A DNA stretch of 64,000 bases from Curvularia clavata (lineage: Eukaryota): assembly GCA_023920165.1 (NCBI GenBank), contig CP089281.1, forward strand, positions 62,001 to 126,000, given 5' to 3'. A program made the translations under genes and the position numbers. Of the stretch, positions 48,202 through 59,768 are shown piece after piece. The notes under the pieces were generated by a model, which worked only from the letters and a program-made list of their open reading frames with translations, was not told the origin of the DNA and searched no databases. Numbering within the stretch: the stretch's first letter is position 1; the number at the start of each line of letters is the position of its first letter.

Positions 48202-48209
48202 TCGGCCGA
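48202..48209. promoter_or_regulatory. TCGGCCGA palindrome (candidate Zn2Cys6 site) in the NCS1 promoter
   Basis: The same 8-mer occurs at 51900, 52141, 57781, 57837 and 59714. Confidence 0.6.
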
Positions 48210-48577
48210 GTTTCTGTTATCCGCAATCACCAAGCCCTTACTCTGCTTCCGGGCCGTTTTCATATCTCATGATTGCCGTGTCTATCGCTTTATCGCTCGG
48301 GTTTAATGACTCTTTATATGCCTGATATCTGGGCGCTGATCTTGCCAGCCACTATCTACGCACCTTCTGGTGTGATAAGAGCTCGCCGTGATGATTGGAA
48401 TAGACTAGTTCCCTTTAGGCGTAAGCGGGGTCTACGCCTATACTTACCATCCCACTTCTCAATAGGTCCATCTCTCAAAGTAAGCCAGATAGCCAGCCCG
48501 ATGCTCAACACAAAATCGTTTCCGCCTGGATTTTTCCTCTTGCACTCTTTCAGAGACTACTTTCTTTACGCTTAGTC

Positions 48578-50486
48578 ATGCTAAAGAAAAGCGCCGTGAA
48601 ACAGTTTGGCCGTAGGGCTAAGCTCGCACTCACGACCCGAGACGGTTTCAAGAATGCCATCGAGGTCAAGACCTCTGATTTCGCACCTTCGAGTTATGGC
48701 TTCATCTGGTCAAATGCTCACATGGATCCCACACCTCCATCAGAGCGTACTTGGACATGGTTTCACTACTTCGCCGTTTGGTACTCATTCAATTTCTCCT
48801 CTGGAGCATGGGCCACGGCTTCATCTCTTCTTAGTCTGAAATTGGTCTGGTGGCAAGCTATCTTGGCCTGTCTGGTCGGGGCTACGATCAGTGCAGCCGT
48901 GACATGTTTGAACTCGAGACAGTCGTCTGTGTACCATATTGGGTTTCCGACTCTTCAACGTGTATCTTTTGGTACGTAGATACCTTCACCAGTCGACGGA
49001 GCGATTATTGACATAATCTTACAGGCCTATACGGATCCCTCTTTCCGGTCTTCACTCGAGCTGTCGTGGCTATCCTATGGATTGGTGTCACAGTGTATCA
49101 GAGCTCCTTGTTCCTCGATATCGCATTTAGGTATGATATTTCCCAGGTGGTCTTCGATCCTTCTACGACTTACACATTTCTAGATGTGTGTTTGGTAATA
49201 CTTGGTACAACATGCCAAACACATTTCCTGTAGGCGCATCAATCACCACACGCAATTTTATATCCTGCTTTATCATATGGATTGGTTCATACCCCGCTAT
49301 GTTCCTTAAGGTTCACAAGATGCGGCATCTTTGGACCTTGAAGGCTGTGGTGGTGCCACCGGTCACAATCGGATTATTCATCTACTGTATGGTGGCAGGA
49401 AGTAAGGGTGCTACGTCTTACGCTTCCACTCCCAAGCCAGTGCATGGCTCACAGCTGGGATGGGCATTTGTGTACGGCATACAGGCCATCATTGGCAGCT
49501 TTTCTCCGTTAATGGCATCAAACCCGGACATTGCTCGGTACGCTAGAAACCCGGAGGCAACTCTATGGTCACAATTCTTTACCATTATATTTTGGAAAAC
49601 CATCATCTGCATGCTCGGTATCCTTGGAACCAACGCGATCGCGTATAGATATGGCAAAACATACTGGAACATGTGGGACATTTGCGGCGTCATTCTAGAT
49701 AACCACTGGAACGGAGGTGTTCGTTTTGCCATCTTCCTCTTTTCTATTATCATGGCCACTTCAGAACAGATCAAGAACCTTTCGGCCAACCTGATTTCGT
49801 TCGGTGCAGACTCGGCATGTTTAATGCCCAAGTACCTCAACATCAACCGTGGAATGGTCCTCGGCCTGACAATTGGTTTTGTCATCCAACCATGGCACAT
49901 CCTCGCAACCGCGAAGAGCTTCCTCACCTTCCTCACCGGATATAGCATCTTCTTAGGCGCTATTCCGGCTATTGCTGTTACGGATTATGTTTTACGGAAA
50001 GGAAATGTTGACGTTCTGTCCATGTACACTGCTCACACAGGTAGGACAAATTTTTCCTGGGTTCATTTGACTGCTGGCTAATCAACTTGCTTTACAGACT
50101 ACTGGTACAATTGTGGCATCAACTGGAGAGCATACGCTGGGTATATCATGGCTATCTGGCCGTTGTGCCCAGGACTTGCTTACCAATTCAACGGGACATA
50201 TAACATCGCTCAGGGTTGGGTTCACCTTTACCAAATCGGTTGGCTCTTCGCAGTGTTCATGTCCGCTTTTGTCTACATTGTACTTTCATATCTTTTCAAA
50301 GATCCAGCCATGTTTCAAGCTCAGAAAGGCAAATGGGAATCCTATGCGGCGAATCAGAAAGAGTTGCTAGATAGGGAGTCTCAGTTGGAAGGGATTTCTG
50401 TGGAAACGGAGTCTCAGACCAGTCAGCAGGATCCTGAAAAGGGATCTGGAAAGACTGCTGACACTGTTACTGTCGCTTGGTCGTAG
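48578..50486 (+). CDS. NCS1-family nucleobase/allantoin permease (Fur/Dal4-like)
   Basis: WSNAHMDPTPPSERTWTW, YHIGFP..QRVSFG, NPDIARYA, NLSAN..SFGAD, PKYLNINRG, QPWHIL and GINWRAY. Three introns. Confidence 0.94.
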
Positions 50487-50790
50487 TACACAAGATCCAG
50501 ATCAGAAACAAAAAGCTCTGAACTACGATTTCCTTGCGTCATTATACGAACGGCTAAGGAGATTATAACTACATTTATCCCACTTTGGTATTTGATCCTC
50601 ATGTCCTTATGTCTCCGGTCCATGAATGGGACGTTTCTTTTGTAACCTTATGCTGTAAGGTAGCGTGTCAGCTGGAACCTTATGTCTCAATCAACACGCG
50701 TAGCCAAGATGCTTATCATTTTAAGGGTATCTGATTCAGATTACTATTGCGCCATTCTCTACCTATGTCACTTCCACTTCGAATAACCTT

Positions 50791-56706: not shown

Positions 56707-57630
56707 CTACACCTTCTCCAAGAGCTTCAATATAGCTCCGGTAGTCGCTTCGGTAGCATCTATCAAGGGTTGATGTCCGCTTTTCACCACTTCCACCCGA
56801 CTGGGTCCGCCAAGTTCCTTGCTCACACTTTCAGCTCTTTGTAGGGGACTGATGATGTCCAAATCTCCTGCCACGAAAACGACGGGGCAAGTGATTTTCG
56901 AGTAGTCTGGGTCGACATGAGAGGGGTCCACGATCAACTCGCAGGTTCGCGCGTAGCCTTCTGGTTCGGAGGCGGCAATTGCTTTGCGTACCTGCTCGAT
57001 AAATTCCACCGGAACAGTGCGCTGGTCCTGTGGCGGGAAGTTGTTAGGTGCAGAATTTGCAGCGGTGAATTGTATGCCGTTCTTGCGTGTGCTTTCGGCT
57101 ACATCGAGCATGCGTTGGCGCACTGCTTGTATGTGACTTGCGGATCGACCAACGCCGAGGAGGGCAAGCCCAGCGACGCTGGATGAATACTGCGCGGCGT
57201 AGTGGAGTGCGACAATGCTTCCGAGTGAGTGACCGATGAAGATGACCTGAGATTTAGAATGTTCTGGTCAGTCACCTTACAAAATTTATGAATTATGCTA
57301 TGTGGTACATACCTTTCCTCCTTTCGCATTGTCTTTACCATCTTTTTGCAGAAATGAGATAAGATCGTGCACGTCGGAGACATGTCCACTCAATGAGAGC
57401 GGCTCTGTTCTTGAAGCCAGAGACGTTTGCCCGAAGCCTGGGAAGTCCACGAGCACAACATTATACTTCTTGGGGAGAGATGGGACAAGTGGCTTAAATG
57501 TATTCACAGAGCCTCCCAAGCCATGCAAGCATATGATTAACGGGCCTCTCGAATCACCAGTCTGAACGTAGTGTGTCTTGGTTTTACTGTAGGTTTCAAA
57601 GAACTTTGACTCGAAGGCTGGGGATGCCAT
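56707..57630 (-). CDS. Alpha/beta hydrolase (enol-lactonase/RutD-like fold class)
   Basis: LHGLGGS, DFPGFGQT, nucleophile IGHSLG, GDLD and SGHQP. One intron at about 57248-57312. Confidence 0.88.
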
Positions 57631-58024
57631 GATTGTAAAAAGGTCCACAGCCGATCTCAGTCCTTGGAAATTCTCAAATATGCGAAAAATAAAAGGTTAC
57701 AAAAGCAGGCATGTAAAAGGTCTCCTGGCCAATTGCTTCCTGTACAGAAAGTTGTTGTCAAGCTGCACCGTCCTCGGGGTTCGGCCGACCCCGAAGAGCT
57801 CCTGTTTCTCACCGCTTCTCGCTGAAAGCCTCCACCTCGGCCGAGGACTCTTCATGTCTTTAGATCAATCGAGCAAGTGGTATCGACGACAACAAGGATG
57901 GGGATAACTGAATTATCTCAAACGATCAGACTCAACGTTCGAGGAGGAGATGCATAGCGACTTACAAGAGGCTCGATGGGGATGCCAGTCTTGTTAATAG
58001 TTTGACTCTCCTAATTCGTAACAC

Positions 58025-59421
58025 ATGGGAAAATATTCTTTGCAAACCATGACTATTACCGCTGTCGTCACTGAGGACACTGTTCAGCTCCCTGTCCTCC
58101 AGAAAGTGAAAATGGAGTTACCCCACGGTACCAACACCGATGGCCGAATAGTACCGATCGAACATGGACCACAGAGCAACGTTGATTTTGGGGCTCTGGT
58201 CTATGGCATTGATCTAAACAACTTCACGGACGCCGACTTCGATTTTATTTCTGATGCTCTACATAAGCACAAGCTTCTGGTCTTCAAGGAACAACCAGAG
58301 ATGTTGAAGCCACAACAACAGTACCTCCTGACATCTAACTTCGATCCGGAAGAAAAAACTGGAGGATTTGCACATGGTGTCGACCCGTTTCTTACATCCT
58401 ACAAGGGCGTCAATATTTATGGCATTCCAAAGCGCCCAGCGATCCCAGTACAACCACAGGTGCACCTGTTAGGTCGTGGGCAGCTACCCGAGGACCACTA
58501 TGGGTTCCCACCAGACTTTGAGATCCAAGGAATCGATCACGAGGAATTCCATCTTCCTCCACACGTTTCTGCTGAAGAGCGCGAGGCAGGTGCCAGCAGA
58601 TTCTACCAATGGCACTTTGACGGATCGCTGTACAACATTCCCCCTCCCCGCGTTGGATGTCTCCTTGCTGTCCGGAGCCCTAAAGGCCCAGATGTGACTG
58701 TACGGTGGGATGATGGTACGGGCACCGAGATGAAGATGGCGCCTGGCGCGACCGCCATGGTGGCGGGGTCCAAAGCACTACGGTTACTAGACGACGAGAC
58801 AAGGAACCTAGTCATGCACAGCAGGATCGAGTATGCGCCGCACGCATTCGTATGGATGTCACCTGCTCGCAGCACACGCCTAGGACACTTGATCGAGACC
58901 GAGGGACTAGAAAAGCCGCTCGATCAGCTCCCACCATGGGATTCCAAGAAGGTTTGTGTGTACCCGATGGTGTGGACGAACCCAAAGACAGGAGAGAAGT
59001 CTCTTCAGGTACATGGCCAGGGTGCCTTCAAATTGTATTTGAAGGATAGTCCAGACGGAGAAGAGAAGGTCATCGATGACTTGAAGGAAGTCCGCGCATT
59101 CATGCACAAGTAAGCCTATTGCTCCATCTTCTTGGGCAATTAGACCGAACTCCGTTGCTGACTGTTTCGAATAGACTGATGCGACCAGTATTATCTCCTG
59201 AAAACATCTATGCCCACAGGCATGAAGAGCAAGACGTCATTTTGTGGTACAATAGAGCCCTGTGGCATAGCATTGTGAGTTTCCTTGATGTCCTAATATA
59301 CATTGCAATAGGAACAGAATCTGATCTCTTACATGTCCTATAGACCGAATTTCCAAAGGCGTATGGACCAAGAGTAATGCATCAATGCAATGTTGCTGCT
59401 AGTGATCATCCATCAGGGTAA
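58025..59421 (+). CDS. TauD-family 2-oxoglutarate dioxygenase, XanA-like, copy 2
   Basis: FGALVYGIDLNN, FAHG, FYQWHFDGSLY (HxD), WDDGTG, YAPHAF.W, YPMVWTNPKTGEKS and LWHSI. Introns at about 59110-59174 and 59275-59343. Confidence 0.88.
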
Positions 59422-59768
59422 AGCAGACAATTGTGCGGTAAGATCAAACAACCGTCGCTTTGGGCGATGGCAGATAGACTTAACTCAACTTGACTTAATT
59501 TCCTGCTTGGTTTGATTCCTCTTGGTCATTAGTTGTAACTAGTTAGGCAGACCTCGCCAGATGAATGTCTCCTCTCGGAAAAGAGATACGCCATCCATAA
59601 CTCTGGATGAGGTTCTTCAAATGGTTAATCCACATTCAGGCAGAAAACTCTCCATCAATGCGTTCACAGCCTTGCAACCCTTCTTTATTAAATCGAACTC
59701 GTCCTAATGCAGCTCGGCCGAAAGTGTGATCTCGCTGTTCCGTAAGTTGTCCATGTTACTCAGCCCTT

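Follow-up and report, generated by a model that had tools for sequence, protein, structure and literature searches.

A conserved zero-spacer CGG palindrome marks the promoters of an importer-oxygenase-hydrolase gene cluster in Curvularia clavata and is a candidate site of its embedded Zn2Cys6 regulator

A 64,000-nucleotide stretch of the Curvularia clavata genome (NCBI GenBank assembly GCA_023920165.1, contig CP089281.1, positions 62,001 to 126,000 of the forward strand; hereafter the window, whose own numbering is used below) carries a small gene cluster, of an uncharacterised type that is widespread among moulds, in which the palindrome TCGGCCGA recurs in the promoters. By comparison with related loci, this word is a real conserved cis-element, and it forms a strong phylogenetic footprint although the promoters that contain it are otherwise unalignable. 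Judged from sequence, the conserved motif is probably the site of the Zn2Cys6 regulator encoded within the cluster.

Related loci were obtained by scanning metagenome contigs with an alignment of XanA2, one of two XanA-like dioxygenases of the cluster, which yielded 35 loci with DNA about 67–73% identical to the window gene. After 10 loci with less than 300 bp upstream were dropped, 25 remained as the XanA2 promoter set, and retaining one locus each at 80% identity gave 13 lineages. In 22 of the 25 loci, the 500 bp upstream of XanA2 contained an exact TCGGCCGA, and the remaining three had a 7-of-8 match, the sites lying 157–319 bp from the extrapolated start. By lineage, the exact word was present in 11 of 13 promoters, compared with a mean of 0.10 and a maximum of 3 in 300 shuffles and with 0/13 in the coding control. 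De novo word counting recovered the same element, the top 8-mers of the lineage promoters being CGGCCGAG (13/13) and TCGGCCGA (11/13), against a best word of at most 6/13 in 300 shuffles; no other 8-mer was common to the lineage XanA2 promoters beyond chance. Conservation in orthologous promoters, on which the original prediction had been staked, was thus borne out. Alignment with blastn among 14 promoters returned only 8 short matches, none of which involved the window promoter.

The element is not confined to XanA2. Exact sites were found in all seven XanA1 promoters examined and in three of six NCS1 transporter promoters, with near matches in two more. Across 19 loci, 27 of 29 exact sites fell within the 16.8 kb upstream of cluster genes (10% of the sequence; P 4e-25) and two in the other 150 kb, a count that omits cross-hits for XanA1 in L018 and L042 as well as a partial match to the regulator in L018, and that took in the promoter windows of the DIOX_N genes in L012 and L015 only once their sites had been seen. 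Gene order varies between loci, and the sites move with the genes. Over 26 sites the consensus reads (C)TCGGCCG(A), with one strong and one looser half-site, the sites having been oriented by that rule. When spacers were compared, CGG-N0-CCG occurred in 13/13 lineage promoters and any other spacer in 0–5 of 13.

Within the window, a recount reproduced the six exact palindromes of the original prediction and found none elsewhere. The first (48202..48209; as with all these sites, no strand is assigned) lies 376 bp upstream of the NCS1 start codon. Two occupy the divergent promoter between the AsaB-like gene and XanA1, one at 51900..51907 (about 130 bp from the AsaB-like start and 473 bp from that of XanA1) and one at 52141..52148 (232 bp upstream of the XanA1 start codon). 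Two more lie between the hydrolase and XanA2: the copy at 57781 forms the middle of a longer imperfect palindrome (57774..57794) with two additional TCGG half-sites, 268 bp from XanA2, and the copy at 57837 is contained in the full 10-bp consensus CTCGGCCGAG (57836..57845), 212 bp from XanA2 and about 210 bp from the hydrolase. Start codons thus lie about 130–470 bp from the five promoter sites. The sixth site (59714..59721) falls between the 3' ends of XanA2 and a convergent O-methyltransferase gene, 293 bp past the XanA2 stop and 48 bp past that of the O-methyltransferase, and within a spliced O-methyltransferase contig of run X12. The claim that all six sites are intergenic therefore holds in that all lie outside the coding exons of the gene models (6/6; P = 4e-4 given a 27% non-coding share), and its promoter part holds for five. 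Site 59714 may be a relic, a 3' element or a chance occurrence. Several related loci carry XanA1 in tandem after XanA2 with sites in between, which would fit a relic, and the chance of one stray site in the non-coding DNA of the cluster is 5%.

TCGGCCGA is the most frequent palindromic 8-mer of the window, and dinucleotide shuffles of the window (n=100) gave a mean of 0.79 and a maximum of 5 copies, with at least 6 in 0/100. Over the whole genome (32.36 Mb), the word occurs 467 times, or once per 69 kb, compared with 413 for the reversed control word, and the 10-mer consensus 29 times compared with 22; the 8-mer therefore shows no general genome enrichment, and the suspicion that it might be common genome-wide was dispelled. 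Six copies within 11.5 kb have a Poisson probability of 2.5e-8, or 7e-5 across all such stretches of the genome. Contig C1 also holds five copies in 20 kb (1958000-1978103; 0.02 such groups expected genome-wide), mostly over open frames and with no common promoter context seen; among the seven sites inspected on C1, six overlap frames of at least 100 amino acids and three lie in frames of more than 400. Because of this group, local counts by themselves are weaker evidence than the footprint, which supplies the independent test.

The six gene models of the cluster are free of internal stops. They comprise an NCS1 nucleobase:cation symporter (48578..50486, forward strand; 581 amino acids, three introns; PF02133, TIGR00800), an AsaB/CmcJ/NvfI-family oxidoreductase (50791..51776, reverse; 288 amino acids, two introns; NF041278), the XanA-like TauD dioxygenase XanA1 (52373..53676, forward; 395 amino acids; PF02668; H164-x-D and H359), the Zn2Cys6 regulator (54389..56593, forward; 713 amino acids, one intron inside the zinc cluster; PF00172), a PcaD-like alpha/beta hydrolase (56707..57630, reverse; 285 amino acids; GHSLG nucleophile) and XanA2 (58049..59421, forward; 412 amino acids; PF02668; H189-x-D and H384). 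The H-x-D...H iron ligands are intact in both XanA-like enzymes, and solved structures gave no match to XanA2. Transcript data consisted of three RNA-like contig sets from three studies, no run being recorded as RNA. In these contigs, the NCS1 (three splice joints), AsaB-like (joints in 3/3 runs) and XanA1 transcripts are spliced, and no joints were seen for the regulator, the hydrolase or XanA2, where cover is sparse. As the contigs are unable to rank genes, they provide evidence neither for nor against co-expression. A public protein record (P0121, 1033 amino acids) joins XanA1 and the regulator (window 52373-56593) without an apparent zinc-cluster domain; since the window sequence holds two separate intact genes, this fusion looks like an annotation error.

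The conserved core consists of the two XanA-like dioxygenases, the hydrolase and the NCS1 transporter, often together with the regulator's own promoter. The proposed five-gene regulon does not survive as a fixed set, the AsaB-like gene being missing from 35/35 related loci; this gene is a local cluster member and may do no more than share a promoter with XanA1. The third oxygenase is variable, being AsaB-like in the window and of the DIOX_N type in L012 and L015, and for that of L012 a thymine dioxygenase is the closest among solved structures. In Pleomassaria siparia, AsaB-like P0245 and XanA2 P0035 are perhaps linked, both being listed with a longest contig of 882,461; other species with both genes have differing values in that listing. 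The putative transmembrane segment 3 of the window NCS1 (window 49025-49130) reads W-I-G-V-T, compared with W-x-G-x-Q in Fur-type transporters, which hints at a different substrate.

Taken together, an NCS1 importer, two XanA-like enzymes, a PcaD-like hydrolase and a third oxygenase suggest uptake and oxidative breakdown, and on this gene content we lean modestly toward a cluster that imports and oxidatively degrades a nucleobase-like compound. It is unlikely, by our estimate, that the regulation is as proposed and that the cluster instead tailors or detoxifies a secondary metabolite. AsaB/NvfI and TauD enzymes frequently tailor natural products, and the surroundings include a polyketide synthase at a distance of about 21 kb and, adjoining the cluster, the O-methyltransferase. 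Against such a role, the O-methyltransferase, amidase, aminotransferase and second regulator of the window occur in 0/35 related loci, the polyketide synthase promoter is without an exact site, and the transporter conserved among loci is of the NCS1 type, which imports rather than exports. In addition, no backbone synthase was found among the frames scanned.

The assignment of the element to the embedded regulator draws on linkage and on the form of the site. The Zn2Cys6 gene was linked in 11 of 35 related loci, including 10 of the 17 longer than 5 kb, and regulator and XanA2 carry locus tags 1–2 apart in seven named genomes, which represent two classes. The window's other Fungal_trans regulator, missing from 35/35 related loci, was rejected as the binder. 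The original prediction had proposed a CGG-N0-CCG site for the embedded protein; its zero spacer held in all lineage promoters, and binding is what we infer from that spacer and the linkage. In the proposed mechanism, (C)TCGGCCG(A) would be the upstream activating site of this protein, a homodimer of which would place its two zinc clusters on two abutting, inverted TCGG half-sites with zero spacer. On sensing a pathway compound, the regulator would turn on NCS1, the two XanA-like Fe/2-oxoglutarate dioxygenases, the hydrolase and the variable third oxygenase, and the induced proteins would together import and degrade a nucleobase-like compound other than xanthine.

Several points weigh against this reading. 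The lineage L042-L044 retains the site, and no regulator is present on its contigs, which extend 4–7 kb on each side. The window regulator's own promoter is without a site, compared with exact or 7-of-8 sites in 7/7 orthologous ones, and site 59714 has no promoter to serve. About 460 further copies of TCGGCCGA exist in the genome, so that the 8-mer by itself is insufficient to define targets. The window NCS1 is only about 28–45% identical, by segment, to the NCS1 proteins of related clusters. Furthermore, a single lineage contributes many of the 35 loci (13), and independence among the 13 lineages is incomplete. A paralogue of the regulator could also read the same sites.

This paralogue is the only one in the genome (contig C3, 47% identity) and belongs to a sister cluster at about 2587900-2596100 (L047:4947 to L048:3080) that comprises an NCS2 permease, a deaminase-like amidohydrolase, the paralogous Zn2Cys6 gene and a DIOX_N oxygenase. 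The paralogue is flanked by the oxygenase and the deaminase-like gene, the latter beside the permease, and the oxygenase is 57–67% identical to a site-bearing member of the L012 cluster. The divergent promoters of this cluster (1673 bp) hold four CGGCCG cores, two each, compared with 0.36 expected (P 5e-4, post hoc), a point in favour of this regulator family as reader of the core. A functional site read by an unlinked factor, either this paralogue or a wide-domain protein resembling Rds1 or Toe2, with the embedded regulator using another site or acting as a partner, is quite improbable. Such a factor would accord with the shared core of the paralogue promoters, with the L042-L044 lineage and with the CGGCCG binders known in two yeasts. 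It is opposed by the absence of a genome-wide excess of the 8-mer (467 vs 413) or 10-mer (29 vs 22), by the lack of a second 8-mer common to the promoters beyond chance, and by the paralogue's own sites, which mostly lack the flanking T or A.

The site type itself is already known. The Saccharomyces cerevisiae protein Rds1 has the motif kCGGCCGa (PMC2174516, PMC3534124), nearly the same word as that of the window, and Schizosaccharomyces pombe Toe2 binds CGGCCG (bioRxiv 2024.08.20.607873). Both proteins are of the Zn2Cys6 type, recognise inverted CGG triplets with zero spacer and share the CGGCCG core, but neither is reported in these sources to regulate a physical cluster of catabolic genes, and neither was among the 120 regulator matches listed. 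The TCGG half-site, its orientation and the pathway-specific activator logic are shared with Gal4 (CGG-N11-CCG), Ppr1/UaY (CGG-N6-CCG) and PDR-1/RhaR (TCGG-N11-CCGA) as partly described in PMC5469009 and PMC10250231, whereas the window site has a spacer of zero and the regulator family a linker of 10–58 residues. The hxn nicotinate cluster similarly groups a transporter, oxygenases and a regulator (sections of PMC5746545), but its HxnR is a C2H2 protein and the window regulator a Zn2Cys6 protein. In the literature searched, with supplements and most subscription papers outside its scope, no account was found of the cluster, of its motif, or of a link between this site type and either a Cep3-like regulator family or an importer-oxygenase-hydrolase cluster of this kind.

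The Cep3-like character lies in the zinc cluster, which is strongly conserved in homologues and whose closest match among solved structures is Cep3 (CBF3 subunit B; E 7e-6 with exon 1, 1e-9 with the family profile). The two share the TRRKVKC recognition stretch, and the Pfam Cep3 model matches 6 of 32 regulator homologues weakly. Beyond the zinc cluster, the regulator has no significant match to Cep3, so that likeness does not extend to the whole protein; in its family the zinc cluster is followed by a coiled coil and the setting is a metabolic gene cluster, and nothing suggests a centromere role. A search of the ESM Atlas returned generic Fungal_trans clusters only. For Cep3, a flexible linker and contact with a CCG triplet have been described (parts of PMC2246632 and PMC7979930), and in the classical picture of Zn2Cys6 proteins the half-site spacing is set by the linker (part of PMC2246632). 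In the regulator family, the stretch from zinc cluster to coiled coil ranges from 10 residues in the window to 58, as scored in 32 of 41 homologues, some of the long linkers being possibly unspliced introns. The short linker was rejected as the cause of the zero spacer, because homologues have 15–58 residues and L012 (15) and L011 (34) carry the same site. That the spacer stays at zero over such a range of linkers raises the hypothesis that the zinc clusters pack against each other on the site.

Purine-type control of the cluster was also considered. A separate XanA-like gene on contig C4 is preceded by a free-standing TCGG-N6-CCGA (L050:7190, C4 ~3342190), which is the UaY consensus; partly on this N6 site, we take the gene to be the probable xanA orthologue, under a UaY-type regulator. 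In its strict form, the N6 site was seen in 1/13 lineage promoters and at a single window position (57781), each time overlapping a zero-spacer site, and control of the cluster by UaY was rejected. Conversely, the zero-spacer site was not found at the two XanA-like genes outside the cluster. The cluster enzymes resemble Aspergillus nidulans XanA in their intact iron ligands, but are only about 40% identical to the C4 gene (a generic name in its source).

A non-transcriptional role of the palindrome, for instance as a meiotic recombination hotspot, is very improbable: WNTCGGCCGA is an S. pombe hotspot motif that has been examined in budding yeast too, loss of rds1 leaving it unaffected there (parts of PMC3534124), but the narrow 157–319 bp distance to start codons and the way the sites follow genes through rearrangements are those of activator sites. 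A chance grouping of a GC-rich 8-mer chosen post hoc is scarcely credible despite the C1 group and the odds of one stray site, which could account for 59714, since the motif had already been chosen when the related loci were retrieved and then emerged as their top de novo word, and for the five promoter sites the orthologous promoters refute it.

XanA2 is 90% identical to its counterpart in Verruconis (Venturiales), compared with 77–78% for Alternaria and Stemphylium, and Curvularia belongs to the Pleosporaceae. In a 40-protein tree, XanA2 falls in a clade (starred) with Verruconis, and a grouping with the two Pleosporaceae was rejected (approximately unbiased test, p-AU 4e-5). Horizontal transfer or hidden paralogy would explain this placement, with no direction claimed. 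The cluster lies about 110–120 kb from the start of contig C8. Among neighbouring features, the O-methyltransferase gene (window 59769-61100, reverse strand) looks broken: its frame is interrupted by a stop near 60680, and small deletions at two places distinguish the run X12 strain from the window. Upstream of it, window 61319-61361 contains three close CACGTG (E-box) words, each in TCACGTGA or CACGTGA. A sulfatase-like gene (window 45000-46150) consists of short pieces with stops and is apparently a pseudogene.

Altogether, these results provide an entry point to a group of orphan fungal enzymes. In a broader and tentative picture, which we regard as less likely than not, a Cep3-like family would set the zero spacer by cluster-cluster contact regardless of a roughly sixfold linker range, two diverged paralogues would control sister clusters forming an undescribed fungal route of modified-nucleobase scavenging that uses orphan XanA paralogues, and the cluster would move between orders with its sites. 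Since linkers vary widely in length here at a spacing fixed at zero, the rule that spacing is governed by the linker can be put to a natural test. The motif also flags regulon members in other genomes, such as the DIOX_N oxygenase of L012 and L015. XanA paralogues of Penicillia and Amorphotheca resinae conserve the iron ligands and lack the xanthine-binding residues, and the substrates of such fungal paralogues are stated to be an open question (part of PMC5611559); the XanA2 matches include one from A. resinae (P0076, 73%). A conserved site known to the base and a candidate for its regulator make this substrate question testable, and the 418-bp hydrolase/XanA2 promoter provides a reporter basis for inducer screening.

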